From: Pseudomonadota bacterium
Lineage (GTDB): Bacteria; Pseudomonadota; Alphaproteobacteria; MPNO01; UBA2964
DNA length: 64,000 bases
NCBI GenBank assembly: GCA_036339375.1
Contig: JAYZBC010000025.1
Span: 27,271-91,270, forward strand
Direction: 5' to 3'
Both the position numbers and the translations under genes were made by a program. This document shows positions 3,962-54,337 of this stretch, piece by piece. Below the pieces are notes generated by a model. The model had not been told where the DNA came from. It worked only from the letters and a program-made list of their open reading frames with translations, and ran no database searches. How positions within the stretch are numbered: the first letter of the stretch is position 1; each line of letters begins with the position of its first letter.

Positions 3962-4063
3962 AAAGGAATATTTAAAATACAACACTCTAAAAAATTTATA
4001 TTAGTGGGATGGTTCCTCTCATTGAATTTTAGACCACTATTTTAGGTGAAAATTTTTTAACGC

Positions 4064-10516: not shown

Positions 10517-10576
10517 CTTTCATGATAAACTAAAGTAGATAATAGAAAAACTGTTTAAAGGCAATGAGTGGAAAGA

Positions 10577-11011: not shown

Positions 11012-11033
11012 ATATCAATATTTAGAAAAGGAT

Positions 11034-11064
11034 TAAGAAGACCCAAGCGATCTCTGGGCCTTCT
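11034..11064. terminator. Possible bidirectional hairpin terminator between the convergent SnoaL-like and UbiD-1 genes
   Basis: GAAGACCCA / TGGGCCTTC stem with one mismatch and a 9-nt loop, flanked by A/T runs on both sides. Confidence 0.3.
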
Positions 11065-11079
11065 AAAAATCTTTAAATA

Positions 11080-12537: not shown

Positions 12538-12597
12538 TTTCATCTCTCCTCTCATTTTTAAATCTTCTACCAACAAATATTGTTGTTATCGACATGT

Positions 12598-14185: not shown

Positions 14186-15679
14186 TTAAGAGGGTTTTTC
14201 GCAAAGGTGTCCCCACTTCTCTATAGCCTCTCTCATGACTTCTGGCTCCGGAGAATTTACAGGGGGAAATTCATCTTTCCAATGAAATGGGCGACAAGCA
14301 TCAATAATCGCCCGGCTATTAGTCAAATTGCCTTTGGCTTTTTCTTCCGGTGGAATTCTTGGATCCAAAGGTGTAGACCAACAATTATGAATGATATCAA
14401 TTGAGGTTGCTGGATCAGAACGTGTGATCATGCCCCAGATTAGCTCTTCCAAGTTAGTCACATCAATATCATCATCTACAACGATTACGTATTTACCTGC
14501 ATATGCCCCGAGATGACACATAGCAGCAACGTGACCCGTTTGCATTGCATGTCCAGGGTAACGTTGCTTTATTGAAATAGCGAGTAACATTCGGGCGGTA
14601 CCAACTTCGTGGGCCCAAACCCCTTGCACATCTGGCACTCCAGCCTTGACAATATTTTCTTTGAGTGCGGCTGAACGTGTAACTGCCCTATAACGTGCCA
14701 ACTCATCTGGTGGGCGCAGAGGTGGACAGCCCAAAATTATTGGATCGTTCCTGTGATAAATAGCCTTAATGTCTAAAACTGGCTCAGCACGCATTTTTGA
14801 ACCATAGTAGCCAGTCCATTCCCCGAATGGTCCCTCTTCAACCCGGTTACCAGGTTCAATAAAACCCTCTAATACAAGTTCCGCATTTGCAGGAAAGGGT
14901 AAACCAGTATGTTTGCCTTTGACGCATTCAATAGCATGCCCCCGATAGCCTCCTAAAATATCATATTCACAGGCACCGGGTGGCATTTCTGTACAACCCA
15001 TTAAGAAGGCCATGGGATCACCACCCAAAACGATACAAGCCGGCATAGGCTCACCATTAGCTTCGTATTTATCACGATGGATTCGACCATGTTTCCCGGG
15101 CGAAATGTAAAATCCGACTTGTTTTTTGTTATGGATCATAACCCGGTAGGTTCCGATATTTATCCAATCACTATCTGGATCACGCGTTACATTGTAGGAA
15201 CCCGTTCCTATATAACGTCCACCATCTTTGTCATGCCACATCGGCGTCGGAAATTTCTCGACGTCTATGTCATCGCCTTCCATAATATTTTCGAATACCG
15301 GCCCGTTATCAACAATTGCATGTGGAATTGGCTCTATAGAAGATAGATGTTTATGGACCCCGTCGGTTAGCTCAAGTTTGGTAAAGTCAGGGGAAAAACC
15401 CATTGTCATGCATTTTCGTTTACCGGCAAAGAAATTGATCATCATTCTAAAACCAGGAGGACAACCCGGCACTTCATCAAAAATGATGCAGGGCGCGTTT
15501 TCATCATGCTGGACAACTTCAGAAGCCAACCCGATGTCCTTTTCCCAACTCGCTCCCTTAACGACTCTAACTTCGCCAAGTTTCTCGGCTTCCACGATCC
15601 ATTCTCTCATATCTTCGTAAGTCATACGGGCACCAACATTCGAACCACTGTCAACGGCCGTAGCTTTTACATCTGCCAT
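14186..15679 (-). CDS. UbiD-family decarboxylase paralog 3
   Basis: About 497 aa with DGGRYIGTG and NAELVLEG motifs. Start placed at ATG 15679 (MADVKATAV...) with a GGGAGAG SD upstream. The ORF-track start 15754 is an upstream in-frame extension. Confidence 0.8.
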   Translation of the reverse strand: MADVKATAVDSGSNVGARMTYEDMREWIVEAEKLGEVRVVKGASWEKDIGLASEVVQHDENAPCIIFDEVPGCPPGFRMMINFFAGKRKCMTMGFSPDFTKLELTDGVHKHLSSIEPIPHAIVDNGPVFENIMEGDDIDVEKFPTPMWHDKDGGRYIGTGSYNVTRDPDSDWINIGTYRVMIHNKKQVGFYISPGKHGRIHRDKYEANGEPMPACIVLGGDPMAFLMGCTEMPPGACEYDILGGYRGHAIECVKGKHTGLPFPANAELVLEGFIEPGNRVEEGPFGEWTGYYGSKMRAEPVLDIKAIYHRNDPIILGCPPLRPPDELARYRAVTRSAALKENIVKAGVPDVQGVWAHEVGTARMLLAISIKQRYPGHAMQTGHVAAMCHLGAYAGKYVIVVDDDIDVTNLEELIWGMITRSDPATSIDIIHNCWSTPLDPRIPPEEKAKGNLTNSRAIIDACRPFHWKDEFPPVNSPEPEVMREAIEKWGHLCEKPS

Positions 15680-15732
15680 AAAATTTCTCTCCCTAAGTAA
15701 ATACGTCCCATTTCCAATTATTCTCGAAAATA

Positions 15733-15823
15733 GGCAATACACAATTTGCCACAAATTTTAAAAAAGGTAAAAGTTTTCGAATGGCAATACAAAAACTTTT
15801 GAAAGACTAGAATTATGCCATTC
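15733..15823. promoter_or_regulatory. Cluster of inverted and direct repeats upstream of UbiD-3 (candidate operator plus promoter)
   Basis: GGCAA-N8-TTGCC inverted repeat at about 15733-15750. (A/T)GGCAATACA repeated directly at about 15732 and 15781. GAATGGCA...TGCCATTC inverted repeat at about 15779-15823. All lie in the 190-nt gap between the 2OG oxygenase stop and the UbiD-3 start. Confidence 0.3.
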
Positions 15824-15946: not shown

Positions 15947-16864
15947 TTATCCGGAAATTTCATTACTCTCCGCAATCCGTTGAGCAACATAGGCACCAGC
16001 CGTTGTGGCTGGATATTTGGCTGGTTGACCCACGCTGACACAACTGTCGAAAGCACTCACTGGTACATCTGTATCAGGATCAACAAAAAATGCTATTGAA
16101 TAACGTTCACGATCCCCAGTAATAGCTCTTACCCTGTGAGGGCTTGAACAATAGCGATCATTTGTCCAAGTTGCGATCAAATCAGCTGTATTTACAATTA
16201 CCGTCCCTGGAATGTGCACTGCATCGAGCCATTGACCAGAACGATTTTGGATTTGTAGACCTCCTACATCATCCTGAAATAATAAAGTTATTGTACCAAA
16301 ATCTGTGTGTGCTCCAGCCCCTAATTGATTTGCAGATAAATTTTTACCCGAAATAGGGTAATGTAAATAACGTAAAGCCACATTTTCTCCCTTATGACGT
16401 TCGCGAAAATATTTAATTGGAAGGTCAAGTGCTATGGCAAAGGCTTCCATAACAATATTTGACCCTCGTAAACATTCTCCGAAAGCACGGACAGCAATTC
16501 TACGAAATTCGTTGGAAGGCCATAAATTCAAAAATTTCTCACGCAACGGTACATCGCGCATGGTAAAGGCTTCTTTCAAATCAGGGGCAAATTGGGAATC
16601 AAGTCGTTGTTCTCCAACACCTTGGTATCCATGGTTCATGTCTTGAACGTAAGATAATTTTGATTTTTCGGACAGCGGTTGTTTGAAAAATTTTACACTA
16701 GAATTAAATGCATCTTGGAGAATATTTTGGTCAATACCTAAATTTTTTGCATACATAAAACCTACTTCAGACGCGGCCTTATTTACCTCTTCTGAAATTC
16801 TCCGTCGTTCGTTTTCGTCACCACTGTCAAATCTTTTAAAATCGATTAGAGGTATATTTGTCAC
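15947..16864 (-). CDS. 2OG-Fe(II) oxygenase, isopenicillin-N-synthase-like (COG3491-type)
   Basis: 305 aa. N-terminal (...IPLIDFKRF...) plus HxD...H facial triad region (GAHTDFGTITLLFQDD...SSPHRV). Confidence 0.7.
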   Translation of the reverse strand: MTNIPLIDFKRFDSGDENERRRISEEVNKAASEVGFMYAKNLGIDQNILQDAFNSSVKFFKQPLSEKSKLSYVQDMNHGYQGVGEQRLDSQFAPDLKEAFTMRDVPLREKFLNLWPSNEFRRIAVRAFGECLRGSNIVMEAFAIALDLPIKYFRERHKGENVALRYLHYPISGKNLSANQLGAGAHTDFGTITLLFQDDVGGLQIQNRSGQWLDAVHIPGTVIVNTADLIATWTNDRYCSSPHRVRAITGDRERYSIAFFVDPDTDVPVSAFDSCVSVGQPAKYPATTAGAYVAQRIAESNEISG

Positions 16865-16895: not shown

Positions 16896-18440
16896 CTATA
16901 AAGAAAATTTATCCTTAATCCAAAATTCTGCCAGTGCATTTCGATCAAGCTTTCCCCGAGAATTTTTTGGCAGTTCATTTAAAAATATAATTTTTTTAGG
17001 GCATTTAGCTGCAGGCAATGTTTTCGAACAATGTTCCATTAAATCTTTAGGGTTCACTTTACTGCCTTTTTTACAAGAAACGTACGCAATTATTTCCTCT
17101 CCATAAATTTTATCAGGTATTCCTAATGTTCCTGCTTCAGATACTGCTTGATGCAAAACCAATACAGCATCAATTTCGAGTGGGGCAATATTTATTCCCC
17201 CCCGAATAATTAATTCCTTTGCCCTTCCCACAATATGGAGATGGCCCTCACTATCAACATAACCCAGATCACCAGTTTTGTGACCTCCCTCTGGCAAGAG
17301 TTCAATTTTACCGTTTGGTAATAAATAACCAAATGCCTGCTGCTTACCCCCTCCTACAATGATTTCTCCGGTTTTACTTTCTTTAAGTAAATTACCATCG
17401 CCATCAACAATACGAACATCTTGATATTTTAACTGTGGGCCAATCGACCCAATTTTTCTATCAGCTCCTCGGTGGGCTGCTGTGTTTCCTCCTTCACTTG
17501 AACCACAGCTTTGAGCAAGTGTAATACCAAAAATTTTTTCAAATTCACGCCATTGTTCTTCATGAAGTGGGGCAGAACTTGAGGTTAAAAATCGGAGCTC
17601 TGGTAATTTACCAATATTTGTATTTTGAGTTCGATTTAACAACATGTTAACCATTGTTGGGACTACAAAACCAATATTGATTTTAAATTTCTTCAACCAA
17701 TAAAAATAACGGCTCTGAGAAAACCGTTTGGCCATAAACGTAGTCCCGCCTGCGATGAGCGGAGCTCCAAGACTCATATGTTGAGCCGATAGCCAACTAT
17801 AAGATCGACAATCTAAAACCCGGTCTCCAGGGGATAGTTGGAGATAGTCAGCCGTAGCGTCATAATTGTAAAACGCATTGGCATGGGTTTGGATTACACC
17901 CTTTGGCTTCGCTACTGTGCCTGAAGTGTAAAAAATAACGCCATGATCATCCGGCTCTGCACAACTGGATAAATCATCCTTGTCAGTAAAATTATAAACT
18001 TCCGAAAAAAAGCCCGTCGAATTTTTCTCTCCTTTAAATTCTCCCAAAAGAAGCCATATCCCAGGGGCCTTTTGTTTTAATTCCTCCAGTCCCAAACCGC
18101 TTTGATACAAAATTATTTTTGGATCAATAGCCTTTATGATTTCAATCAAGCTACCTTGATTCATCTCAACATGGACTGTCGCTATACTCGCGCCATAACG
18201 CAGAACGCTTACGAATACTGCTAAATTTTCTACTGAGTTTTCAGCCAGTAACAATATACGGTCGTTGGCTTTTATTTTGTGTGTTTTTAAAAAGTGAGAT
18301 ATCCGATTAGACAACCCATAAAGGGTTCCGTAGGTAAGGGATTTGTTTTGATCAATACAATGGACGTAAATCCGATCCGGAAACTGGGCTGCGTTTTTGG
18401 CTAAAATTTGATGAAAATTTGTATAGCAGTTTAAAGCCAC
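16896..18440 (-). CDS. AMP-dependent synthetase/ligase (acyl-/aryl-CoA ligase)
   Basis: 514 aa with the adenylate-forming enzyme motif YTSGTVAKPKGV and a C-terminal ligase domain. Confidence 0.8.
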   Translation of the reverse strand: MALNCYTNFHQILAKNAAQFPDRIYVHCIDQNKSLTYGTLYGLSNRISHFLKTHKIKANDRILLLAENSVENLAVFVSVLRYGASIATVHVEMNQGSLIEIIKAIDPKIILYQSGLGLEELKQKAPGIWLLLGEFKGEKNSTGFFSEVYNFTDKDDLSSCAEPDDHGVIFYTSGTVAKPKGVIQTHANAFYNYDATADYLQLSPGDRVLDCRSYSWLSAQHMSLGAPLIAGGTTFMAKRFSQSRYFYWLKKFKINIGFVVPTMVNMLLNRTQNTNIGKLPELRFLTSSSAPLHEEQWREFEKIFGITLAQSCGSSEGGNTAAHRGADRKIGSIGPQLKYQDVRIVDGDGNLLKESKTGEIIVGGGKQQAFGYLLPNGKIELLPEGGHKTGDLGYVDSEGHLHIVGRAKELIIRGGINIAPLEIDAVLVLHQAVSEAGTLGIPDKIYGEEIIAYVSCKKGSKVNPKDLMEHCSKTLPAAKCPKKIIFLNELPKNSRGKLDRNALAEFWIKDKFSL

Positions 18441-18526
18441 GCTATCATTATCCTGCCTGTCAATTTTTTCTGTCGATAAAAGGTTCTCTTAAATCTGAGT
18501 TTAACATGACAGCGATTTTTGAAAAA

Positions 18527-20092
18527 TTAGCCGTTACCTGTCTCACCCAACCAACGAAAGTAGGGATCTTGCATTGCCCGAAGTTCAGAGAGTTCATCAT
18601 CAGAAAACCATTTAGAAAAATCCATTTCCTCGACTGGATAATGGGCTCGTTCATAAACCTGTACACCGAGGGGTGCTGTAGCATCAATTCCCATACCTCC
18701 ATCAGATACGGAGATATTGCCAATCTTGTGTTCAGAAGGCTGAAAAGCCTGACCTCGTCCGTATTCGTTATAAACGATGTAATCTTTAGTAGCAGAAGCA
18801 CGCGATTGAATGGCCCACATCACGTCTTCCGGTTGCCAGGGGTCAATATCATCATCCACAACAACGACGAGTCGCATGCCTCGGTAAAGTCCCATTATGG
18901 CGGTGAGTAAATTGCGCTGCATACCTTCATCGGAGCGCCGACGTTTTTTTACCTGGATAACCAATCCACCCCAAAGTGTTAGACCTAGCCAGCTCGCAAC
19001 ATCTTTTACAAAGCCAGGGGCCATCCTTTCACAAAGCTCAAAAACGCTGGCACACATAAAAGGGGCCTCATACCAAAAAGCACCAAAATGTGGGGTGTAC
19101 ACAATTGGATTATTTTTACGCCGAGTTACTGCGGTGAGTTCAAAAGCCCGGGGCGTCCGATATGCATGGCCCATAGTACGCGCCCACTCGGGATGCAATA
19201 AAGCCACCCCTTGTTTACCCATTTCTTCTGCTTCAGCAGTTTCCCAAACACGTTCTCCTTCTACAACATACCCCTCAAGTGACCACTCAGCATTGGCAAT
19301 TGTATATGCATCTACCGTTTTGGCCTTCACTACATCCACTGGGTAACCCTGAATGGCACCAGCAAAACCCAGCTTATCTGTCTGCCCGGGGAAAATGACA
19401 GGGTTCATAGTAGAGACTGAAACTAGTTCAGGACCGACAGGTGGGCAAATATTTACCGTGCATGGTACTTTCTCCCCTTGGTGACGCGAGCAAATTACGT
19501 CACCAGCGCCCCCTGGCACCATGTTTATAGAAGCAAGTTTGTGTCCTTCTCTAAACGACATTCGATACATAGAAATTTGACTACCACCCCCAGGTACCCA
19601 GGGTTCACCCATAAAAAGATGTGATCCCGCACCGAAAATTCTTCCGCCATCTTGGAAGGTGTGTTGTGCAACGGGTATAATTTCTTCAATATGATTAAAA
19701 TCTTTCCCCGGGATAAGTGTTTCCTCATGGACCGGACCGTCGTCTACCACGCGTGGGGCAATTGGATTTTCAACCTGCTTTAATAGCTGATTTTTGATGT
19801 TTCGGAAGTCATCACACCCGTGAAATAAACACACACGCTCTTTTCTAGAGTATAGATTAGATATCATCCTAACATTTGGATAACCTTTGATTTTGTTAGC
19901 AACAATTACTTTAGAGTTATCAAAGGCTTTGGTTATAGTACACATCTCAACGTGGGGATCGACCTCGGCGTCAATATAGTGAACATCGTCGCCAAGCCAT
20001 TCAAGTGTAGACCGTAAGTCAACAAGCCCTTCACCACGCGTCAGGCTGCTAAACCTTTGATCGTCTAGCTTAACTGTCATTCGGTCTGACAT
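18527..20092 (-). CDS. UbiD-family decarboxylase paralog 4 (divergent)
   Basis: 521 aa. UbiD-like throughout (QDGGRIFGAG..., NAEWSLEG) but much more divergent than paralogs 1-3. Confidence 0.7.
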   Translation of the reverse strand: MSDRMTVKLDDQRFSSLTRGEGLVDLRSTLEWLGDDVHYIDAEVDPHVEMCTITKAFDNSKVIVANKIKGYPNVRMISNLYSRKERVCLFHGCDDFRNIKNQLLKQVENPIAPRVVDDGPVHEETLIPGKDFNHIEEIIPVAQHTFQDGGRIFGAGSHLFMGEPWVPGGGSQISMYRMSFREGHKLASINMVPGGAGDVICSRHQGEKVPCTVNICPPVGPELVSVSTMNPVIFPGQTDKLGFAGAIQGYPVDVVKAKTVDAYTIANAEWSLEGYVVEGERVWETAEAEEMGKQGVALLHPEWARTMGHAYRTPRAFELTAVTRRKNNPIVYTPHFGAFWYEAPFMCASVFELCERMAPGFVKDVASWLGLTLWGGLVIQVKKRRRSDEGMQRNLLTAIMGLYRGMRLVVVVDDDIDPWQPEDVMWAIQSRASATKDYIVYNEYGRGQAFQPSEHKIGNISVSDGGMGIDATAPLGVQVYERAHYPVEEMDFSKWFSDDELSELRAMQDPYFRWLGETGNG

Positions 20093-20248
20093 TTGCGTCC
20101 TCCTACATAAAAACTTTAATCGATATTATAGTTTAATCTTTATAAACGAACCTAGTTTAAATCAACAGGGCTTTCCCGTTTTGTTACACAGCGTTAATAT
20201 TAATAACAATTTTTATATTTTTCTGATCGGAACAAGAAGGAGACCGAA

Positions 20249-20764
20249 ATGTTAGATTCACCGGAATTTGCAAAGCCTGCCAAAACCAACAAACAAATGA
20301 AAGAACAAGAAGTTTCGTTTGCCGAAATTCAAACTCCTTATTGTTTTTCACTGAAAGGCCAATTGCTTGACCAAGGCCGAACAGACACCGTATTAGCTGC
20401 AACTGATGATTTGACTATCCGGCTCAAAATTTACGCATCTGGCGGGGAAAATGAACTCCATGCTCACCCCCACGAGGATCACAGTTTTATGATTCTACAA
20501 GGTTCCGCCAAATTTTTTGGTCCGAATGAAGAAGAAATTGATTTAAAACAATGGGAAGGAATCATGTTGCCGCGCGGCAATTTATATAAATTTTATGCTA
20601 CCAGCAAAGAACCTCTTGTCATGATACGAGTTGGAAACCCTAACTATAAAAAACAAACGGCACCCTACCGTGTCAACAAAAAGGGTGTGGAAATGAGAGG
20701 TGATTCTGAAGAGAACAAAACCGTTCCCGTCATTTTCAAAGAAGATACCTTTTTCGGTAGTTAA
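20249..20764 (+). CDS. Cupin-domain protein
   Basis: 171 aa with cupin motifs (GGENELHAHPHEDHSFMILQGSAKF...). Divergently transcribed from UbiD-4. Confidence 0.55.
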   Translation: MLDSPEFAKPAKTNKQMKEQEVSFAEIQTPYCFSLKGQLLDQGRTDTVLAATDDLTIRLKIYASGGENELHAHPHEDHSFMILQGSAKFFGPNEEEIDLKQWEGIMLPRGNLYKFYATSKEPLVMIRVGNPNYKKQTAPYRVNKKGVEMRGDSEENKTVPVIFKEDTFFGS

Positions 20765-20888
20765 TACCCTCAAAAAAAGATAACTTTTTTAAAAAATCCA
20801 ACGGGCTAAGTTTATCCAAATGCGGAATTTGAAGGTTGTTAAGTGGTTAAAAGGTGAAACCAAAAATTATAAAAGAGCCAGAATTTTA

Positions 20889-21986
20889 CTAATCTCTGAT
20901 ATCCTGGAGAAACCATTCGGTTGGAAATTGCCTCCCTACTTTCGCCTTCAACGCTTTTTCGTAAACTAGTCCACCAACAGACGAAAATTGCAAACCCTGG
21001 TTGCCTATATTGTGATAGAAAGTAATCTGTTCATCGTCTGTTCGTCCAAGAGAAGGATCTTTTACTAATTCGCCAAAATCTGGGTAATCGGCCACAAAAT
21101 TGAAATTTTCCTGTTTAGGGGGCAGACGCGTGCGTTCTTCTTCAGAACCTGCAACCCAAGCCATTGGACTATGCCCTACCCCTTTTAAAATATCATCCCC
21201 ATCGATCTTTAAACCGGATTTTCCCTGGGAAATTTTTACATCACAACTTTCTATTACCTCATTTGAAATTTCTAGTGGGCCGAGCATCGTAACGTGTTGG
21301 CCAGGAGACAACCATTCTGCATCAAATGTAGGTTCCATTGAATCAGTACAAGAGGAAACAATATCTGCACCGCGAACAGCCTCTTCGGGGGAACTAACAG
21401 GTACCACTTCGATATTTAACCGCCGGCTCATTTCAGAGGCATAAGCATTTCGATTTGCCTCCGTCGGGCTATAAACTTTAACAGAGCGGATTCCCCGAAC
21501 GGCGCAATAGGCTTGGAGATAGGTGCGGGCCATACCCCCCGATCCAAGCATGCCAACTGAAGTGGAGTTTTTGCGAGCGAGATATTTTGCTCCAATTCCA
21601 CCGCCACCTCCTACTCGCATGTGTTGTAAAACTCCATCATTTATAAAGGCAAGAGGCTCACCATTCTTTGTAGAAAAAAGCATAATCAAACCACAATATG
21701 TCCCAGGTTCAATACAAAATTTATCTTCTCTCCAGTTACCTTTTTCATTGACCGGCCATGTCATAATGTCAGATTTCATTCGAATGGCTAAGTATCCACC
21801 GGAACAACCCTCCATTGTTCCCCACCGATAATATCCATCCTCAAGATCACAAGGTGCATAAATATCTGAACGTGGCCGATGTGTTGCACGGCCTTCTGCC
21901 AAGTCTGAAAATGCTTTTTCTTGAGCAGCAATACAGTCTTCCATAGTCAAAATTTCTTGTACAACATCATTATGGATAAACAACAT
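20889..21986 (-). CDS. Ornithine cyclodeaminase / mu-crystallin family NAD(P)-dependent enzyme
   Basis: 365 aa with the OCD/mu-crystallin pattern, including a Rossmann motif (MLGSGGMARTYLQA). Confidence 0.7.
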   Translation of the reverse strand: MLFIHNDVVQEILTMEDCIAAQEKAFSDLAEGRATHRPRSDIYAPCDLEDGYYRWGTMEGCSGGYLAIRMKSDIMTWPVNEKGNWREDKFCIEPGTYCGLIMLFSTKNGEPLAFINDGVLQHMRVGGGGGIGAKYLARKNSTSVGMLGSGGMARTYLQAYCAVRGIRSVKVYSPTEANRNAYASEMSRRLNIEVVPVSSPEEAVRGADIVSSCTDSMEPTFDAEWLSPGQHVTMLGPLEISNEVIESCDVKISQGKSGLKIDGDDILKGVGHSPMAWVAGSEEERTRLPPKQENFNFVADYPDFGELVKDPSLGRTDDEQITFYHNIGNQGLQFSSVGGLVYEKALKAKVGRQFPTEWFLQDIRD

Positions 21987-22273
21987 TTTGTTCTCCCTAG
22001 TTTTGTCTTTCAGTCAAACACTTCAATGAAAAATACAAAAGTTACTCAGCTTAGGTTCAAGTTACGTCGGATACAATACGACAAAGAAATCAAAAAAGAA
22101 TCATCTATTCTGGTCCATAGTAAAAATTTATTCCCACAGTAACCAAAAAATCTATTGAATGATCAAAATTGATTTTCCAAATCCAAAGAACATCCTGTTT
22201 GCTTATTTAAAAGAATTTATTGAATGAAGGTTCAAACCAATAATATAAGTTAGAAATTTAATTTTTCTTCGAC

Positions 22274-23269
22274 CTAAACCTTAAATTCGCTTTGAACCTC
22301 TTTAGGAAACATTTCTTCAGGCGTTAAGTGCCGGTGAAACAACCCCTGTTCGTAACCATAGAGCAGAAATGCCTCCAACGTTTTTCGGTTTGGCTCAATA
22401 CCATAAGGATAGAAATCATTTCCAAATAAATCACGTGCTTCCGATGCTGCATTATAAACCCACGCGATTGGAGCCCTACATGCTGTTATATCGAGCATTC
22501 TCTCGAGTGATCGATTTTTTGCCTCGGTAAGGGCCTTGACCATATTCTGAGCCACCCAGGGGTCTGCTTCAAAAACTTCTCTCCGAATTGCGTAGAGGTG
22601 CATGATGGGCCAAATACCCGTCTTTTCATAATACTCCTTTTCTACCCGCTGGTAATCTTTATAAAGACGTACAATTCGGGGATCACCCTGTTCAACCAGG
22701 TCTGGAGGATGTGCCGTTAAAATTGCATCAATGTCACCCGCCAGTAAAAGTTCAGTCAAAGATTTGTCTGGACACGGAATTAACTTAACTCCATCAGGAA
22801 GCTTAAGAGCGACCTTTTCTTTTCGGCCGGCTTGATTGACACCAGCTTGGTGCCATTCGATTTCGTTTAATGGAATTCCTATGTCATGCTGAAGCCAGCC
22901 ACGTGAATACACCGAAGCGGATTGACCCCATTCTGGTATTCCAATTCTTTTACCAGCCAGATCTTCAGCCTTTTTCACAACGCTATCAGCAGAAATGTAG
23001 AGTGAAGACTGACGATGAACGCGGGAAGGAAATATCGGCAATCCCACAAACCGATCATCGCCTTGACTTATCATTGAGGTGTATTTTCCAGAAGAAATTT
23101 CTGAAATATCGTATTCTTCAAAATTGATAAAGCGATGAAACATTTCTTCAATTTGAACTGTCATCGCTATTAAATCTATTCCCTCTGGTTCAACAGGGCC
23201 TAGGGTTAGGTCTCTTACATGGTCATAATCGCTTGTAGCGAACGTAAGTTTTAACCGTTTCTTCGGCAT
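22274..23269 (-). CDS. Cytoplasmic NMT1/THI5-like (SsuA-fold) protein resembling 4,5-dihydroxyphthalate decarboxylase (Pht5/PhtD-like)
   Basis: 331 aa with no signal peptide (MPKKRLKLTFATSDYDHVRDLTLGPVEPEGIDL...), a periplasmic-binding-protein-like fold outside any transporter operon. The Pht5 similarity is recalled from memory, not searched. Confidence 0.45.
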   Translation of the reverse strand: MPKKRLKLTFATSDYDHVRDLTLGPVEPEGIDLIAMTVQIEEMFHRFINFEEYDISEISSGKYTSMISQGDDRFVGLPIFPSRVHRQSSLYISADSVVKKAEDLAGKRIGIPEWGQSASVYSRGWLQHDIGIPLNEIEWHQAGVNQAGRKEKVALKLPDGVKLIPCPDKSLTELLLAGDIDAILTAHPPDLVEQGDPRIVRLYKDYQRVEKEYYEKTGIWPIMHLYAIRREVFEADPWVAQNMVKALTEAKNRSLERMLDITACRAPIAWVYNAASEARDLFGNDFYPYGIEPNRKTLEAFLLYGYEQGLFHRHLTPEEMFPKEVQSEFKV

Positions 23270-23431
23270 TCTCTAAGAGCTCCCAATTTTTTTATTTATA
23301 GAAAACAGATGTTTACAATTTTTAATGTTAAATTATTCTGTTCATTCGTTAAACGGATTTAAAAAAAAAATTGAATTTATTTACCTGGTAACGTAAGAGC
23401 TTTATATCATAAACATTTTCGGGGCCAGACC

Positions 23432-24394
23432 ATGGCAGACTTTAAAGATTTCATGCCAAAAGGCGTAATTCCAGCGACGTTACTTGGATTTAGCGAGGAT
23501 TACACCATTGATGAAAAGGCAACCCGCAATCATTTAAAACATGTGTCGAATGTAAGAGGAATTAGTGCAATCACCATAAACGGACATTCCTCTGAAATTC
23601 ACGCTTGTAGCGAGAAGGAACAACAACAACTGCTAGATTTAGCGCTCAATGAAGTTGGTAATAAAATACCTCTCATTAACGGTATTTGGGCTGATGGTAG
23701 TCACCAAGCCGCTCGTATGGCACGACAGGCAGAAGCGGCAGGCGCGTCTTGTCTTCTCATATTTCCACCACAGCCCATAATGATGATGCAGGGACAGCAA
23801 AAACCTGAAATGGCTATCACCCACTTTAAGATAATTGCAAATGCTACAAACTTGCCCCTAATCGCCTTTCAGTATCCTAATAATTTTGCATACCGCCTGG
23901 AAACACTGCATAAGATGATTGAAGAGATTCCTACACTTGTGGCAATTAAGGACTGGAATATGGGGCACCTTCACGAACGACACATTCGTGAACTGCAAAA
24001 CGGTCCTCGCCCTTTCAACGTACTCACCACGAATAGTGCTTGGTTGATGTCCTCACTAACTATGGGAGCTAATGGTTTATTGTCTGGATCAGGAAGCGTC
24101 ATAGCAGATTTACATGTAGCTTTATTCGATGCCGTTCGGGAGGGTGATTTGAAAAGAGCCCAGCTTATTAATGACCGAATTTTTCCAACCGCCCAATGTT
24201 TTTATGCTCCCCCGGAAACTGATATGCATAATCGCATGAAAACAGCATTACTTATGTTGGGGCGTATGCCTAATGCCGTAGTCAGGCCACCACTCACCAA
24301 CCTCTCGGAAGATGAACTTACCAAAATTCAAAAAGCAGTACAGGATGCGGGACTAAGTTATGAAGGCGCCAATATTTTGAAAAAAGCAGCCTAG
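23432..24394 (+). CDS. DapA/DHDPS-family class I aldolase (pyruvate-dependent aldolase or hydratase-aldolase)
   Basis: 320 aa with DHDPS-family features including the Schiff-base lysine context (VAIKDWN). Confidence 0.7.
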   Translation: MADFKDFMPKGVIPATLLGFSEDYTIDEKATRNHLKHVSNVRGISAITINGHSSEIHACSEKEQQQLLDLALNEVGNKIPLINGIWADGSHQAARMARQAEAAGASCLLIFPPQPIMMMQGQQKPEMAITHFKIIANATNLPLIAFQYPNNFAYRLETLHKMIEEIPTLVAIKDWNMGHLHERHIRELQNGPRPFNVLTTNSAWLMSSLTMGANGLLSGSGSVIADLHVALFDAVREGDLKRAQLINDRIFPTAQCFYAPPETDMHNRMKTALLMLGRMPNAVVRPPLTNLSEDELTKIQKAVQDAGLSYEGANILKKAA

Positions 24395-25506
24395 TTTACA
24401 TTTGTAGTTGTTTTTTTGTTACGTAAACCCAAACGTTGCATACGAGGTAAAATTTCGTCACGAACGATAGGCATGTCATCAACATAATTCACAAGGCCAA
24501 TAGCCATCCCGTTAAGGCCACAATCGGCTAAGAATTTAAATTTTTCGGCCACTTCATCATAACTTCCAATTACCGGATACGTGCCGGTTCCACTGATTAT
24601 TGCTTCTTTCATTTCCGCCAACTTTGGACCAGAAGAAGACCCACCCCTGGTTCTAATTTGGACGGTATATTCGGCTGCCTCCCAGTCTCCATTTTCAAAG
24701 ACCAAATAATGATAATACTCTGCAGCTTCTTTTGAGGTTGGTCTGGTAATTACATGGCCGCTAGCATAAATACCCGAAGTCCGTTTAGATACTGCGTTCC
24801 TTAAGTCTTCGACTTTTCCAGCAAGCTCCCCAAGCTCTCTTATGGATGTAAACAAACAATCACAGTGACGAGCAGCAAAATTCCGTCCTACAGGAGAATT
24901 CCCAGCACTAATTAATAACGGTCGATCACCACCAAATGGTTTTGGTTTACATTTTACTTCTTTTACATCGAAATATTTTCCTTTAAAATCAAATGGCTCA
25001 TTTTCCTCCCAAATGCGTTTAACGATGGTGATCCATTCTTCTGAATACGCGTAGCGTGCGTCATGATCCCGAATCGAAACACCGTGCATCTCATGCTCAC
25101 CTACATTCCAACCAGAAACGATATTAAGTCCAAACCTTCCTCTCCCGATATGATCAGCGGTAACCATTTGTTTTGCACAAAATACTGGCCCTATTAATGA
25201 AACGTGAACTGTCCCAAAAATTGAAATTTTCTGAGTAGAGGATAAAAGGCCAGATGCCCAGGTCAAAGTTTCAAAAGAAGAACTTGCGGTATCTGTTTCC
25301 CCGCCATAACCATGCCAACGACCTATTGGAAGAATAAATTCTAGTCCTGCATCATCAGCAAGTTGAGCAGCCTTTACATTATTTTCCCAGGACGCGACCC
25401 AATATTCCGGAGCCTTTGTCATCGTAAGACCCCCAGAACAATTCATGCCAAACAAGCCCAACCTAAATTTGTTCTCGTTGTACATTCGTGTTTTGAACCG
25501 GCTCAT
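24391..25506 (-). CDS. LLM-class (luciferase-like) flavin-dependent monooxygenase
   Basis: 371 aa with the TIM-barrel LLM pattern (...GLFGMNCSGG...). Confidence 0.7.
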   Translation of the reverse strand: MSRFKTRMYNENKFRLGLFGMNCSGGLTMTKAPEYWVASWENNVKAAQLADDAGLEFILPIGRWHGYGGETDTASSSFETLTWASGLLSSTQKISIFGTVHVSLIGPVFCAKQMVTADHIGRGRFGLNIVSGWNVGEHEMHGVSIRDHDARYAYSEEWITIVKRIWEENEPFDFKGKYFDVKEVKCKPKPFGGDRPLLISAGNSPVGRNFAARHCDCLFTSIRELGELAGKVEDLRNAVSKRTSGIYASGHVITRPTSKEAAEYYHYLVFENGDWEAAEYTVQIRTRGGSSSGPKLAEMKEAIISGTGTYPVIGSYDEVAEKFKFLADCGLNGMAIGLVNYVDDMPIVRDEILPRMQRLGLRNKKTTTNVN

Positions 25507-25584
25507 CCCTTCCCCCGGTGACGAAGAATATACTTTAATTTAAATGTTAAGTTTTTATCACACCAACTCTTTGACATCCCCTCA

Positions 25585-25614
25585 AATTAAAACGACGGGG
25601 CATCGCCCCGTCGT
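25585..25614 (-). terminator. Rho-independent terminator of the bicupin dioxygenase gene
   Basis: Perfect 10-bp GC-rich stem ACGACGGGGC / GCCCCGTCGT with a 3-nt loop, followed on the minus strand by TTTTAATTT. Confidence 0.6.
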
Positions 25615-25636
25615 ATAATTCAAAAATGGCAATTGT

Positions 25637-26758
25637 TCACCCATATTGAGATTCATCAATGAATTTCCCCATTAGGGAGTCTGCCCCAGCTTTTTTCATT
25701 GCCTCCAGAAAAATCTGATGTATACGGGGATCTTGATCTCCGTATTCAAGCTGGGCACCACCCTTATTAACATCTACATCCATACCCATGAAAATCCTGC
25801 GTTTTTCTTCCATTAGCGGATAACGTAAACCACCACACGCAACCGCCAGATAACGAGATGGTATGGCCGCAGCATTAAAATGCTGATGAAACATCATATC
25901 AGGAGGAGCAAAAACAGTACCGTGGGTCCAATCAACTCTCGTAAAATCCTTATCCCCCTCATACCAAAGAAGGGAATAACCGTGACCCGTTACACACATA
26001 ACGTGGAAATCTGCCCCATGCCGATGACCCTTTTTATAGGTCCCGACTGGCATTTCCGACATATGTGCATGCATTGCACCATCAGCGAGAACAAACATCA
26101 TATTTGACCCACCAGCGCCTCTCGCCTCCCATTTTTGTAACTCAAACGTCTGTAAATCTGGAATAAAATTTGTTTCCCACATATGACGGCCTGGACGTTT
26201 TGGTATAAACGTACCCTCTCCCGCATAATAATCTGCCGATCCCTCACGGGTTGGGAAACGAAAAGAATTATTGAATAAAAAATCATAATCATGAAACACA
26301 TTCATAATCATAGGCATATTGTTAGTTGAGGATAAACGGGCAGGTTCTTGCCCTGAACCATTGAAATGCTGATATTTGGCATTAAGAGGTAAAGCAAACA
26401 AGCTTCCCTTGCCCCACTCAAAACTGTGTTTAGTTCCATCAGCCGTTTCAACCTGGGTGCTGCCTTGCCCTGCAAGGCAATAAACCACCTCTTCAAACAT
26501 ATGTTGTTGAGGAGATGTTTTTCCGCCCGGTTGAAGTTCCAGAACGAATACCGACAACCAATCGCCTCTTCCCTTAAGATGAGCGAATGCGCCATGTGCA
26601 TCGAAACGCGCCCAAGGCTTTACATCTATTTTCGGAAGATCAATTCCAAAATCTTCAACAATGGGGACCCCTTCGCCCTCGCACCAATCAAGGAATGGGT
26701 CCGAAAGAAACGGTTTTTCATCTACTTCAGATCTTACTTCTTGTTCGATCGTGTCCAT
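25637..26758 (-). CDS. Bicupin ring-cleavage dioxygenase, gentisate 1,2-dioxygenase-like
   Basis: 373 aa with two cupin modules carrying His-rich metal motifs, and a size typical of gentisate / 1-hydroxy-2-naphthoate dioxygenases. Confidence 0.5.
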   Translation of the reverse strand: MDTIEQEVRSEVDEKPFLSDPFLDWCEGEGVPIVEDFGIDLPKIDVKPWARFDAHGAFAHLKGRGDWLSVFVLELQPGGKTSPQQHMFEEVVYCLAGQGSTQVETADGTKHSFEWGKGSLFALPLNAKYQHFNGSGQEPARLSSTNNMPMIMNVFHDYDFLFNNSFRFPTREGSADYYAGEGTFIPKRPGRHMWETNFIPDLQTFELQKWEARGAGGSNMMFVLADGAMHAHMSEMPVGTYKKGHRHGADFHVMCVTGHGYSLLWYEGDKDFTRVDWTHGTVFAPPDMMFHQHFNAAAIPSRYLAVACGGLRYPLMEEKRRIFMGMDVDVNKGGAQLEYGDQDPRIHQIFLEAMKKAGADSLMGKFIDESQYG

Positions 26759-26983
26759 TTTTATTTTCCCAATAAAAAATTATTCAATTTTCTTAAAGCC
26801 AATTCCACCTGCTTTATCCTAGTGTGGGTAACCCCAATGGTGCAAGTCGTGTATGAATGTAACGTAAAATACCCATAATTTTTTTATAGCCCGTAACTTT
26901 TCCAGGAACCATTAATTTCCAATAAAAAAGTCATCTATTGCGAGACTATATTTTAGAAGATAAAATTAAAAAGAAAATTCTTT

Positions 26984-27799
26984 TTGTGTCAGAAGAAAGC
27001 CCAGGAGAACAATAAATTGGCTAAACACAAGGCTGAAACTTTAAAAATAAATGACTGCAACATACAAAGTCTCCGAGGCGGATCGGGCGAGACAATGCTG
27101 TTTTTGCATGGGGCGGGTGGAATTAATGGCTGGACGCCCTATTTAGATGCGCTTTCTGACCGGTTCAATCTAATAGCTCCGAGCCACCCTGGTTATGGCA
27201 ATTCGGATAATCCAGACTGGTTAGATAATATGGCAGACCTAGCCTATTTCTACCTAGATTTTATTGAACAACAAAAACTAGACCAAATTCATTTAATTGG
27301 GCATTCCCTTGGTGGCTGGCTCGCAAGTGAAATTGCTGTAAGAAATGCTGAACGTATTAAAACATTAACTTTGGTTGCCTCTGCAGGACTACGTGTAATT
27401 GGGGAGCCAATGGGTGACATTTTTATGTGGAGCAAGGAAGAACGGGCACACAACCTTTTCTACGACTCAAAACTTGCAGAGCAGAGATTGTCAGAAAACC
27501 TTTCGTTAGAAGAAGAAGACATGCAACTTAGGAATTTTTTTACCACTGGAAAACTTTCCTGGAACCCCCGTTTTCATAACCCCCATCTCGACAAATGGCT
27601 GCATAGAATAAAAATTCCAACGATGATAATTTGGGGTGATTCCGACAAAATTTTTCCACCGGCCTATGGGGAAGCCTATAAAAATGCGATACCGGGCTCC
27701 CAGTTACTAGTAATTCCAAATTGTGGGCACGTTCCCCACCAAGAAAAACTGACGGAATTTTTAGCAGGGATAGACACTATTACCAAAGGAGCCAAATGA
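26984..27799 (+). CDS. Alpha/beta-hydrolase fold hydrolase (C-C bond / ester hydrolase type)
   Basis: HGAGG oxyanion region and GHSLGG nucleophile elbow. The true start is probably the TTG about 33 nt in (MAKHKAETLKIN...), which has an AGGAGA SD. The stop overlaps the next gene's start (ATGA). Confidence 0.7.
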   Translation: MCQKKAQENNKLAKHKAETLKINDCNIQSLRGGSGETMLFLHGAGGINGWTPYLDALSDRFNLIAPSHPGYGNSDNPDWLDNMADLAYFYLDFIEQQKLDQIHLIGHSLGGWLASEIAVRNAERIKTLTLVASAGLRVIGEPMGDIFMWSKEERAHNLFYDSKLAEQRLSENLSLEEEDMQLRNFFTTGKLSWNPRFHNPHLDKWLHRIKIPTMIIWGDSDKIFPPAYGEAYKNAIPGSQLLVIPNCGHVPHQEKLTEFLAGIDTITKGAK

Positions 27800-28962
27800 T
27801 GAGATTTTCATTCTTTCACTTAATGCCCTATGGTGCCGTTGATCTGGAGGCTATTACGGAAACAGCCTGGATTGTATTTTCTAACAGCAATTATGACCCG
27901 AAGGAAGGTCACAAACTTTATAACAGATATCTCGACGAGTTAGAGTATGCCGATCAACTTGGTTTTGATGGCGTTTGCGTTAATGAGCATCATCAGACAG
28001 CTTACGGCATGATGCCACAACCCAGCGTTTTAGCTGGAGCACTTTCCCGAAGAACAAGCAATGCTAAAATTTGTGTTTTAGGGCGTGCCCTCCCACTAAC
28101 CGAAAACCCCCTATCAATCGCGGAAGAATATGCGATGATAGATAACGTAACCGGTGGCCGTCTTATTGCTGGATTTGTTAGGGGAATTGGTTGCGAATAC
28201 CATTCTTATATGGTCAACCCTAGTGAATCTCTGTCACGATTTCACGAGGCACACGATTTAATTTTACAAGCATGGACTAAACCAGGACCAACCCCTTTCG
28301 AAGGCAAATATTACCGTTTTCAATATGTTAACCTTTGGCCACGCCCTTATCAACAACCGCATCCGCCTATCTGGATTCCGTCACAAGGGTCCACGGAAAC
28401 CAAAGACTGGGCGTCTCATCCTGACCGGAAATATACTCTTTTGATGACATTCAGCCCTGTTAAAAATGTAATACGAAATCTAAATGCATACGCGGAAAAA
28501 TGCCAGGAATACGGTTACCAATGTTCACCTGAACAACTAGGTTGGGCTTTGCCACTTTATGTGGCTGAGACTGATGAAAAAGCAATAAAGGATGCACGCC
28601 CCCACGTCGAAAATTTCTTCAATAAATTTATCCTAGCTCCCACAGAGTTTCGTATGCCTCCGGGTTATTCCTCTATTAACTCTTATAAAATGATAATGGA
28701 AAATAAAATGAAATTCCGGGAACAATTCTTGTCTATAGAAATGTTGATGGAAAACGGCATGTTCGTTTGTGGAAGTCCGGCTACCGTTGCTGAAAAACTC
28801 GAAGGTTATCAAAACGAAATGGGTTACGGCAATTTAGTTATTATGGGCCAATTTGGTACTTTAGGGCATGAAGCAGTTAAAACGAGTATGCAAATGTTTG
28901 CTGAAGAAGTGATGCCTAAACTCCGCCCCATAGGAATGTCAAGCGCCGCAGCTGCGGAGTAG
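27796..28962 (+). CDS. LLM-class flavin-dependent monooxygenase (second copy)
   Basis: About 388 aa from ATG 27796 (MMRFSFFHLMPYG...) with an AAGGAG SD. LLM signature. Translationally coupled to the hydrolase. Confidence 0.7.
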   Translation: MMRFSFFHLMPYGAVDLEAITETAWIVFSNSNYDPKEGHKLYNRYLDELEYADQLGFDGVCVNEHHQTAYGMMPQPSVLAGALSRRTSNAKICVLGRALPLTENPLSIAEEYAMIDNVTGGRLIAGFVRGIGCEYHSYMVNPSESLSRFHEAHDLILQAWTKPGPTPFEGKYYRFQYVNLWPRPYQQPHPPIWIPSQGSTETKDWASHPDRKYTLLMTFSPVKNVIRNLNAYAEKCQEYGYQCSPEQLGWALPLYVAETDEKAIKDARPHVENFFNKFILAPTEFRMPPGYSSINSYKMIMENKMKFREQFLSIEMLMENGMFVCGSPATVAEKLEGYQNEMGYGNLVIMGQFGTLGHEAVKTSMQMFAEEVMPKLRPIGMSSAAAAE

Positions 28963-29106
28963 AAATTTAGCTACATTTGCAAAAACGGCATGATAATACC
29001 CTAACAATCTAAATCTTGACTTAAATACGACGTCCAGTAGGACTTTTTAACGGCTGCTTCCAAGTTCCGTCCTAGAAAGAGGTATACTAAAGGAAAACCT
29101 TAATCA

Positions 29107-30039
29107 TTAACCTAAAATTTTATCGATCATTGCTAAATCCTGTTCATCCATTTTCCAATCGGCTGCAGCAGCATTTTGTGCTAGCTGTTCTCTGCGTGTT
29201 GCCCCTGCAATCACACTAGCAGTAATTTTTTGAGAAGAAAGCCACGAAATTGCTAGGGTGAGTAGATTAAAACCGCGTGAGTTTGAAAATTTTTCGAGTT
29301 CTTCCAAACGTCTAAAATCCACTTTGGCCATGGCTGCCTCTCCTTCCAATCGACTTCCTTTTGGGGCATCAGCCCCCCGCCGGTATTTTCCCGTAAGGAG
29401 ACCTTTTGCTATAGGATAGTAGGGCAAAATTTTCACATTTCTTGAATTACAAATTGGCTTGAGATCTGTTTCAATACCCCTATCCAATACGTTCCAACAA
29501 TTTTGTGCTGTTACAAACCCTCTATAATTTTCTTTAACTGATATTGTTTGAGCTTCCTCTAACTGCATCCCAGAAAAATTTGAACAACCAAACAATCGGA
29601 TTTTTCCAACGGTAACTAAATCATTTAATGTACCAAGTGTTTCTTCGATAGGTGTAGAGGAATCAGGAGTATGTATTTGATAAAGATCAACGTGGTCTGT
29701 CCGCAATTTTTTGAGGCTTAAATCAATAGCTGCCATAATATTTTCCCTGGTACCTTTCCCTTTTCCGGGGACATGTTGCATTGTCAGGCCAAATTTCGTG
29801 GCGAGAATTACTTCATGACGACAATCTTTCAAAGCGTTTCCAATAAACTCTTCAGACAATCCACCACCATAATTTTCTGCTGTGTCGAAAAAAGTGATTT
29901 CCGCTTCAAGAGCCGCTTTTATTACTTCTTTACTGGCCTCCTCATTAATACGTCGGCCGAATGCGTTACATCCTAAACCAACAATCGAAATATCAAATCC
30001 CTCCTCACCACCAATCTTACGAGTTTCCATGATCCTCAT
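29107..30039 (-). CDS. Aldo/keto reductase
   Basis: 310 aa with AKR motifs (...GLGCNAFGRR..., ...ENYGGG...). Confidence 0.8.
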   Translation of the reverse strand: MRIMETRKIGGEEGFDISIVGLGCNAFGRRINEEASKEVIKAALEAEITFFDTAENYGGGLSEEFIGNALKDCRHEVILATKFGLTMQHVPGKGKGTRENIMAAIDLSLKKLRTDHVDLYQIHTPDSSTPIEETLGTLNDLVTVGKIRLFGCSNFSGMQLEEAQTISVKENYRGFVTAQNCWNVLDRGIETDLKPICNSRNVKILPYYPIAKGLLTGKYRRGADAPKGSRLEGEAAMAKVDFRRLEELEKFSNSRGFNLLTLAISWLSSQKITASVIAGATRREQLAQNAAAADWKMDEQDLAMIDKILG

Positions 30040-30201
30040 CCCTTTTTCACCTAAAGCCAGTAATTCAAACAGAAATTACAAAAAATTAGTTAACAATTTG
30101 GTAATTTGTTATTTTTTTAACGGCAAATAGGTTAGAACATAAGCAATAAATTCGCACTGACAGAATTACCCTTAAACTTCGAATCCAATCGAGCCCTTAA
30201 T

Positions 30202-31509: not shown

Positions 31510-31577
31510 GAATTAACTTGGCATCATATTCAAACTATGAAAAAAGCAGCCAAACGGTTTTCTAAAAGGATAAAATC

Positions 31578-32867: not shown

Positions 32868-32890
32868 TCGTAAAAAGTCACAAATTTAAA

Positions 32891-54065: not shown

Positions 54066-54337
54066 ATAATTTCCTCTGAGTTTGTACCCTGGATGACACT
54101 CAATCTTATACAGAGCAGTCACCAATTAGACTAAACTGCAAGCATTTGCATCGCAAGTGGCTTCATACTCAAATCTGAAAGGCAAAATTATCGATTTTTG
54201 AAAGGCTTAAAACATTATGAAAAGAAAAACAAAAAAAGATACAAAGGAAATTAAAAATAACCTTGTGGTTTTCTGAAAACTTATCTTATGTCTAACTGAT
54301 CTTAAGAATTTTAAAATTTCAAAAAGGCTGTTCCTTT

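Follow-up and report, generated by a model that had tools for sequence, protein, structure and literature searches.

The closest described relative of the protein considered here is the 4,5-dihydroxyphthalate decarboxylase of Comamonas testosteroni KF-1 (Pht5/OphC/PhtD type, EC 4.1.1.55; PDB entry 9jp7). Similarity to phthalate decarboxylases has been reported for a cofactor-free 6-hydroxyquinolinate decarboxylase (PMC6644310, citing Uchida et al. 2003). Anaerobes activate phthalate and isophthalate with a coenzyme A (CoA) transferase or ligase, after which a UbiD-like enzyme, the cofactor of which is supplied by UbiX, decarboxylates them (PMC13040137). Here, we analyze a 331-amino-acid (aa) protein of the Pht5 family that is encoded in a stretch of 64,000 nucleotides, hereafter the window, from an alphaproteobacterial metagenome-assembled genome (MAG) of the oxic ocean (contig JAYZBC010000025.1, positions 27,271 to 91,270). 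The gene is located at 22274-23269 on the minus strand and is predicted, from the match to 9jp7 and a structural model, to code for a cytoplasmic, non-oxidative decarboxylase with the fold of periplasmic binding proteins. We consider it fairly probable that the product is a soluble enzyme that catalyzes the decarboxylation step of an uncharacterized route, with a substrate other than 4,5-dihydroxyphthalate.

Homology, Fold and Location of the 331-aa Protein

Neither a Pfam family (E ≤ 0.001) nor an NCBIfam model was assigned to the 331-aa protein. Its best and only strong match in the PDB was 9jp7 (E = 7e-68), with residues 5-324 aligned to residues 23-342 at 36% identity over 319 residues. 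With relaxed thresholds, hidden Markov models (HMMs) yielded 17.7 bits for NMT1 (cutoff 20.5; E = 0.0035) and 20.4 bits for the NCBIfam model SsuA_fam (cutoff 163.5; E = 2.4e-4). An initial annotation of the window had described the protein as having an NMT1/THI5-type fold and resembling Pht5. The HMM scores support such a fold weakly, while the support from the predicted structure is clear: the AlphaFold2 model, built from 24 homologs, had a predicted local distance difference test (pLDDT) score of 88.9, and a Foldseek search gave a template modeling (TM) score of 0.93 to 9jp7. The next neighbors in this search, with TM-scores of about 0.5, were MqnA/MqnD-type enzymes, TauA, SsuA, Thi5 and DszB, all with a Foldseek probability of 1.0 and 12-17% identity to the 331-aa protein. 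The comparison with Pht5 on the one hand and SsuA/THI5 on the other, which the initial annotation had proposed, thus favored the former.

In an alignment of 98 family members, among them 9jp7 and the enzyme of Novosphingobium KA1, 56 columns were at least 93% conserved. We singled out 17 polar or aromatic residues that are invariant across the family, each conserved in 92-98 of the 98 sequences. All 17 are retained in the 331-aa protein (Y15, E41, E42, R46, E57, S59, S82, R83, R86, E113, R123, R149, E151, D181, H224, W238 and Q308). Since none of these residues has been lost, the core reaction, i.e., the binding of a dicarboxylate and the removal of one carboxyl group, has probably been kept as well. 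Homology, fold, the lack of an export signal and the conserved residues all fit membership of the broad Pht5 family.

The N-terminus of the protein (MPKKRLKLTFATSDYDH) has neither a hydrophobic core nor a twin-arginine motif. An in-frame TAG codon is located two codons upstream of the ATG, which makes a longer N-terminus, and hence a signal peptide, impossible, and a GGGAG ribosome-binding site is situated just ahead of the ATG. An alternative upstream start was considered and rejected because of the TAG codon. The highest mean Kyte-Doolittle value over 19 residues was 1.03, and the model has its first strand from residue 6 onward. Pfam domain scans of every open reading frame (ORF) of at least 150 aa in the window revealed no permease or ATPase of the ATP-binding cassette (ABC) type (ABC_tran, BPD_transp), and the transporters in the window were restricted to one member of the major facilitator superfamily (MFS) and one TRAP DctPQM set. 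The absence of a signal peptide and of a transporter partner, both predicted earlier, was thereby confirmed, and a search for the opposite situation, an upstream start with a signal peptide accompanied by nearby ABC genes, came out negative.

Relationship to Decarboxylases in Phthalate Operons

We compared the 331-aa protein to a reference set of five decarboxylases encoded in recognizable phthalate operons of Novosphingobium KA1 (pCAR3), Sphingobium yanoikuyae SHJ, Phaeobacter inhibens, Neptuniibacter halophilus and Acidovorax, to which it is 36-38% identical. A gene for a Rieske phthalate dioxygenase and a homolog of the Gfo/Idh/MocA dehydrogenase were present in all five loci. The decarboxylase gene directly follows the dehydrogenase gene in all but the Acidovorax locus, and a PDR/VanB reductase gene and a nadC-like gene are usually found alongside in those four. 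The copy in Acidovorax is scrambled, fragmented and apparently broken, with the same partner genes nearby.

None of these partners could be identified around the 331-aa gene. Searches with tblastn for the Rieske, PDR/VanB reductase, Gfo/Idh/MocA dehydrogenase and nadC-like genes gave no match in the 64-kb window, and the Pfam scans recovered neither Rieske nor GFO_IDH_MocA domains there. The protocatechuate dioxygenase family was likewise not found among the window ORFs scanned. Furthermore, the full set of phthalate partners was present in none of 80 genome loci that carry closer relatives of the 331-aa protein.

A distance-based neighbor-joining tree of 102 family members (midpoint-rooted, 100 bootstraps) separated the five phthalate-operon enzymes and some paralogs from the 331-aa protein and 87 others with 100/100 bootstrap support. 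Bootstrap support was likewise 100/100 for clade A, which contains the 331-aa protein and consists of sequences from marine MAGs with at least 70% identity. At 45 positions, the residue is at least 93% uniform in clades A, B and C and differs in the five phthalate-operon enzymes. Ten of the 45 positions carry a single residue throughout the five phthalate-operon enzymes (R35, S79, S80, H105, Y131, W138, I142, R205, K283 and H323 in 9jp7 numbering), for which the 331-aa protein has, in the same order, H17, G61, K62, Q87, W114, Y121, W125, H187, R265 and G305. Judged by these sequence comparisons, the 331-aa protein is not an orthologue of the 4,5-dihydroxyphthalate decarboxylase in phthalate operons, and 4,5-dihydroxyphthalate is probably not its substrate.

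One of the related clades carries two tandem Pht5-like genes downstream of a PF14518 gene (L013, 9078-10073; L022, L023, L024, L034, L041 and L043, at about 9.0-10.0 kb). The second copy is about 40% identical to the 331-aa protein and groups with the phthalate enzymes in the tree.

Genes Adjacent to the 331-aa Gene

The ORFs on both sides of the 331-aa gene had been assigned to the cupin, OCD/mu-crystallin and DapA families, and the coordinates of all four ORFs and the three family assignments were upheld by the Pfam scans. The first gene downstream, on the same strand and at a distance of 287 bp, codes for a 365-aa NAD(P)-dependent enzyme of the OCD/mu-crystallin family (20889-21986, minus strand; OCD_Mu_crystall, 4.7e-37). 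Its best match in the PDB, over the full length, was 6t3e, a delta1-pyrroline-2-carboxylate reductase (1.1e-29). No NCBIfam equivalog cutoff was reached by this protein; the model for Pyr2C/Pip2C reductases gave 111 bits vs. a cutoff of 322. Further downstream, a single-domain cupin of 171 aa is encoded on the plus strand (20249-20764; Cupin_2, 2.8e-7), for which no informative PDB match was obtained.

Upstream of the 331-aa gene, and divergently oriented from it, is a gene for a 320-aa paralog of the class I (Schiff-base) aldolases of the DHDPS family (23432-24394, plus strand; DHDPS, 8e-36). The AT-rich intergenic region of 162 bp between the two genes (23270-23431) is presumed from its sequence to be a shared control region; a scan of positions 20000-24600 for consensus promoters and terminators gave no more sites than shuffled sequence, with fewer consensus promoter sites than in the shuffles, and demonstrated no promoter. 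The paralog was also considered as the DapA of lysine biosynthesis, a role that was ruled out by the presence of a genuine DapA next to SmpB (53190-54125, minus strand; DHDPS, 6.8e-95), to which it is only 23% identical. The Schiff-base lysine is kept in an AIKDW motif, while GTTGE is replaced by GHSSE and PGR, which contains the substrate arginine of DapA, by PNN; there is also a 5-residue insertion. No NCBIfam equivalog cutoff was reached by the paralog either, nor by any other neighbor.

Gene Neighborhoods in Relatives

Neighborhoods of related genes were mapped by tblastn with seed proteins and compared with gene calls. The nearest loci elsewhere belong to MAGs classified as alphaproteobacterial or "Rhodospirillaceae", and genes identical to those in the window are present on several marine metagenome scaffolds. 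Orthologs of the DapA paralog (68-76% identity) were found in eight of the nine clade A loci, and orthologs of the OCD gene (59-83% identity) near the Pht5-like gene in seven of the nine, as compared to 5 of 21 loci in clades B and C. The identity of the OCD protein tracks that of the Pht5-like protein across loci (80/75, 83/80, 81/79, 76/77 and 61/59%), as is expected of genes that are inherited together. The small cupin, the bicupin described below and the UbiD gene of the type located at 18527 in the window were each recovered from four of the nine clade A loci. The 171-aa cupin is conserved beside the OCD gene and this UbiD gene in L017, L019 and L020 (UbiD identity 74-88%), and orthologs of the bicupin (72-79% identity) are present in L014, L019 and L020.

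In clades A to C, the partner that recurs most constantly is a gene for a protein with the heme-oxygenase fold (PF14518): in 26 of 31 loci, it immediately precedes the Pht5-like gene or is no more than about 1 kb away from it (e.g., L008, 9251-9970; L011, 7221-7967; L013, 7262-7996; plus 23 other loci), as compared to none of 56 other loci. The 26 copies have E81, H88, E142, H184, D188 and H191 as invariant residues, a pattern that we take to be the ligand pattern of the di-iron site in Chlamydia CADD. Weak matches of the PF14518 protein to 4-aminobenzoate synthase and BesC agree with a CADD-like di-iron pattern. The PF14518 gene is absent from the window, L014 and L019, and a search of the window for the CADD-like, TauD, 2-hydroxyacid dehydrogenase and thiamine pyrophosphate (TPP) enzyme partners of related clades gave no hits.

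In a more distant marine clade, the operon consists of a LysR gene, the PF14518 gene and the Pht5-like gene, followed by genes for an OCD enzyme and/or a 2-hydroxyacid dehydrogenase, with genes for TauD, a short-chain dehydrogenase/reductase, an MFS transporter, a TPP enzyme and UbiD nearby. The Pht5-like gene of soil Burkholderiales and Bradyrhizobium instead comes after an MFS transporter gene and has genes for flavin hydroxylases, FAH hydrolases and cupin dioxygenases of the gentisate type beside it. Other branch members are present in isolate genomes, among them those of Noviherbaspirillum, Paraburkholderia, Caballeronia and Pandoraea. The Pht5 family thus appears to comprise decarboxylases for different aromatic-acid routes. 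We found no paper that links this family to OCD enzymes or PF14518 proteins.

The content of the region varies between related genomes, as seen from the genes inserted in a flank that is otherwise syntenic. Positions 24391-33904 of the window correspond to positions 1-7806 of L014/L015, a 71%-identical relative, with genes for ALAD, a Cys/Met pyridoxal phosphate enzyme, an MFS transporter, an aldo-keto reductase, the bicupin, the DapA paralog and the Pht5-like protein in common. Two luciferase-like monooxygenase genes and a hydrolase gene are inserted in the window, and TauD and TetR genes in L014/L015.

L003, a metagenome scaffold, carries an identical Pht5-like gene. Its OCD gene is split into 63 and 291 aa (3628-4725) and one of its UbiD genes into 184 and 286 aa (9937-11430); either the assembly is at fault or the genes are decaying in a fraction of the population.

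Decarboxylase Genes and Other Features of the Window

The UbiD-family decarboxylase encoded at 18527-20092 (minus strand) is most similar to phthaloyl-CoA decarboxylase (Pcd), with full-length matches to 8pmk (3.9e-81) and 8oz5 (8.1e-81); the next class, AroY, followed at 5.7e-32. Directly downstream is a gene for an AMP-forming acyl- or aryl-CoA ligase (16896-18440, minus strand; AMP-binding, 2.1e-59; AMP-binding_C, 1e-17). No NCBIfam equivalog was reached by either of the two (16896-20092). A pairing of this kind is typical of anaerobes and is here encoded by an alphaproteobacterial MAG that is marine and presumably aerobic. A weak test gave no UbiX in the window. A 2-oxoglutarate/Fe(II) oxygenase is encoded next (15947-16864, minus strand; 2OG-FeII_Oxy, 1.5e-25; DIOX_N, 3.7e-22), and three further UbiD genes are arranged in tandem on the minus strand (11080-12576, 12598-14094 and 14186-15754; UbiD, 1e-61 to 2e-64). 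The third of these has 7pda, a "UbiD family decarboxylase", as its nearest match in the PDB (2.6e-111).

On the other side of the 331-aa gene are genes for a luciferase-like flavin monooxygenase resembling SfnG/RutA (24391-25506, minus strand; Bac_luciferase, 2.8e-49; SfnG, 1.6e-51, under the cutoff) and for the 373-aa bicupin (25637-26758, minus strand; Cupin_2, 3.9e-6), a possible ring-cleaving dioxygenase with a weak match to the 5-aminosalicylate 1,2-dioxygenase MabB (3.6e-6) and no match in the PDB. A flavin reductase is encoded at 33982-34473, and the window also contains genes for two family III CoA-transferases. At 26984-28962 (plus strand), the listed ORFs for an alpha/beta hydrolase (TTG start, 271 aa) and a second luciferase-like monooxygenase (413 aa) have 79 bases in common. 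In public gene calls, this pair measures 286 and 387 aa, and the starts in the ORF list are therefore not the true ones. That the window is chromosomal is shown by its housekeeping genes at 39-54 kb (ParC, RecO, Era, Rnc, LepB, PdxJ, SpoT and SmpB).

The initial annotation had counted at least seven decarboxylase-family proteins from three unrelated folds at this locus, provided that the 331-aa protein is a decarboxylase, and suggested an island for the catabolism of carboxylated aromatics of the phthalate or hydroxybenzoate type. The four UbiD genes (starting at 11080, 12598, 14186 and 18527) and two Amidohydro_2 genes were recovered, but the second of the latter (47524-48591) is located 24 kb outside the cluster, among housekeeping genes such as PdxJ and SpoT. 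Genes for decarboxylases, oxygenases and CoA activation, and the Pcd-like UbiD in particular, are consistent with a region for carboxylated aromatics, whereas the tree, the residues and the missing partners speak against a phthalate route via 4,5-dihydroxyphthalate. The Pcd-like UbiD supports such a region more than the Pht5-like gene itself does. A second suggestion, a cyclic imino-acid route of the hydroxyproline or pipecolate type, agrees with the OCD and DapA-paralog genes being conserved partners in close relatives, but no Pfam match to Pro_racemase, DAO or Aldedh was obtained among the window ORFs of at least 150 aa.

Discussion

Automatic annotation offers two readings of the 331-aa protein that differ from ours. 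The name "ABC transporter substrate-binding protein", given by RefSeq/PGAP to its homologs, would make it a solute-binding protein of the SsuA/TauA/NMT1 type, in agreement with the weak matches to SsuA_fam and NMT1 and with a 45%-identical homolog in Neorhizobium, the gene for which comes after ABC transporter genes. This reading is effectively refuted, and we regard it as most improbable: the in-frame stop codon, an N-terminus with neither a hydrophobic core nor twin arginines and a fold that begins at residue 6 argue against export, the window has no permease or ATPase, the HMM scores are far under the family cutoffs and the nearest solved relative is an enzyme. The second name, "4,5-dihydroxyphthalate decarboxylase", used by JGI for close homologs, would imply a genuine phthalate enzyme with the dioxygenase, the reductase and the dihydrodiol dehydrogenase encoded elsewhere in the genome. 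That 9jp7 is the only strong PDB match, that the identity of 36-38% to genuine phthalate enzymes comes near the value among these enzymes themselves and that a Pcd-like UbiD is encoded next door all speak for it, but the JGI name stems from an automatic KEGG Orthology (KO) transfer. The maximally supported split from all five operon-validated enzymes and the replacement of the residues that these have in common make it improbable, as does the gene context: a Rieske gene in every genuine locus and an abutting Gfo/Idh/MocA gene in four, as compared to neither in 64 kb or in 80 related loci, and no protocatechuate dioxygenase family in the window.

A third explanation is that the fold supports another chemistry here (a dehydratase, a hydrolase, a desulfinase-like lyase or a carboxylase), or that the protein decarboxylates a non-aromatic cyclic imino or amino dicarboxylate in a route of the amino-acid type, together with the OCD-like reductase and the DapA paralog. 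The fold is known to host several chemistries, with MqnA/MqnD-type enzymes, Thi5 and DszB as the next structural neighbors, and the conserved partners are an OCD enzyme nearest to pyrroline-2-carboxylate reductase and a Schiff-base DHDPS paralog, from families that typically act on cyclic imino acids and 2-oxo acids. Likewise, the CADD-like di-iron partner in the relatives is from a family with amino acids as substrates, as judged by the matches to 4-aminobenzoate synthase and 4-chloro-allylglycine synthase and by the ligand pattern. Yet the retention of every invariant residue that is common with the phthalate decarboxylases argues for the same core chemistry, the likeness to the other enzymes of this fold is remote and the remaining genes known from hydroxyproline and pipecolate routes are absent from the window, and we therefore consider this explanation unlikely, albeit less so than the two above.

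Several points weigh against a decarboxylase with a substrate other than 4,5-dihydroxyphthalate, which is the explanation we prefer. The branch that contains the 331-aa protein, from marine Alphaproteobacteria, is uncharacterized, its decarboxylase activity being predicted, and we found no paper on the structure or mechanism of 9jp7. Identity between the two groups of genuine phthalate enzymes is itself only about 41%, so 36-38% identity alone cannot exclude the same substrate, and the case against a phthalate role is built on tree, residues and gene context. Of these, the clade-specific positions were defined by alignment rather than placed in the pocket by coordinates, and the search for partners covered 64 kb, such that phthalate oxygenase genes could be located elsewhere in the genome. 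The placement of clade A as sister to the PF14518-linked clades B and C is weak (3-33/100 bootstraps). Finally, the gap of 287 bp between the Pht5-like and OCD genes, with no promoter or terminator assigned, leaves their co-transcription unproven.

If the 331-aa protein is such a decarboxylase, a mechanism can be proposed from the chemistry of the family and the conserved residues. The substrate would be bound in a cleft between the two lobes of the fold, where the conserved arginines R46, R83, R86, R123 and R149 may bind the carboxylate groups of an aromatic or heteroaromatic dicarboxylate with a hydroxylated ring. The conserved acid/base residues H224, E57, E113 and E151 would donate a proton to the ring carbon from which the carboxyl group departs, and CO2 would be released without an organic cofactor. 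The reaction would belong to a route acting on a carboxylated aromatic or N-heterocyclic acid, encoded in a variable chromosomal region together with the Pcd-like UbiD and the CoA ligase. Its recurrent partners in the relatives, the Schiff-base DapA paralog, the NAD(P)-dependent OCD oxidoreductase and, mostly, a CADD-like di-iron oxygenase encoded directly upstream, may be functionally coupled to it. We also examined the dipicolinate (dip) catabolic cluster as a home for a Pht5-like decarboxylase; the published cluster gave nothing relevant.

A more speculative proposal, which we put forward with considerable doubt, is that the Pht5-like, OCD and DapA-paralog genes, mostly accompanied by the CADD-like di-iron oxygenase gene, represent an undescribed pathway that is widespread in marine Alphaproteobacteria and degrades a natural carboxylated aromatic or N-heterocyclic compound, e.g., a hydroxylated pyridine- or benzene-polycarboxylate of dissolved organic matter. 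A cofactor-free decarboxylase would then operate beside a Pcd-like enzyme dependent on prenylated flavin mononucleotide in an organism of the oxic ocean.

The family has 3345 matches in public data, and its naming affects how these are read. The name "ABC transporter substrate-binding protein" is applied by RefSeq/PGAP even to genes in clear phthalate operons (L098, 6998-7987; L099, 5995-6987; L100, 5992-6984; L101, 5998-6984), and JGI extends "4,5-dihydroxyphthalate decarboxylase" to distant paralogs as well, by KO transfer. Both names are misleading for a large part of the family and probably wrong for the branch that contains the 331-aa protein. Counting such genes in metagenomes as evidence for the degradation of phthalates or plasticizers in the ocean would over-call this capacity. 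The association of PF14518, Pht5-like, OCD and DapA-paralog genes is a testable lead to a catabolic route in abundant marine bacteria; beyond that, the 331-aa protein is an ordinary paralog of a known enzyme family, on an uncharacterized branch with a distinct and conserved gene context.

Comparison with Known Systems

The 331-aa protein and 9jp7 are of the same length (about 330 aa), can be aligned end to end, have the same fold (TM-score 0.93) and are both cytoplasmic. Common to the two are R46, E57, S59, S82, R83, R86, E113, R123, R149, E151, D181 and H224. The 331-aa protein differs from 9jp7 in that the identity is limited to 36%, in that it falls on the other side of the 100/100 split and in that the residues conserved in the operon enzymes have been replaced. 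Unlike the genes in phthalate loci, the 331-aa gene is not adjoined by genes for a Rieske dioxygenase, a reductase, a Gfo/Idh/MocA dehydrogenase or a nadC-like protein.

With the phthaloyl-CoA decarboxylase systems of anaerobes, the window has in common a Pcd-like UbiD (3.9e-81), an AMP-forming CoA ligase and two family III CoA-transferases. However, the characterized Pcd systems come from anaerobes, whereas the host of the window is an alphaproteobacterial MAG from the oxic ocean, and UbiX was not recovered from the window in the weak test described above.

The SsuA/TauA/NMT1-Thi5 group, MqnA/MqnD and DszB have the same general fold as the 331-aa protein (TM-score about 0.5). In contrast to the SsuA/TauA/NMT1-Thi5 group, to which it is 12-17% identical, the 331-aa protein scores under the HMM cutoffs and has neither a signal peptide nor transporter genes. 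Like the reaction proposed here, the one catalyzed by DszB takes an acidic group off an aromatic ring and needs no cofactor.

The 6-hydroxyquinolinate decarboxylase of Alcaligenes sp. UK21, with which we could compare by description rather than by sequence, has been reported to be a cofactor-free, non-oxidative and highly specific enzyme that acts on a hydroxylated pyridine dicarboxylate (PMC6644310). The same source places the phthalate decarboxylases in the UbiD family, an assignment that does not apply to the Pht5 fold. With this enzyme as a precedent, N-heterocyclic hydroxy-dicarboxylates are realistic candidate substrates for the 331-aa protein, and a hydroxylated pyridine dicarboxylate of the kind used by the UK21 enzyme would fit its OCD and DapA-type neighbors.

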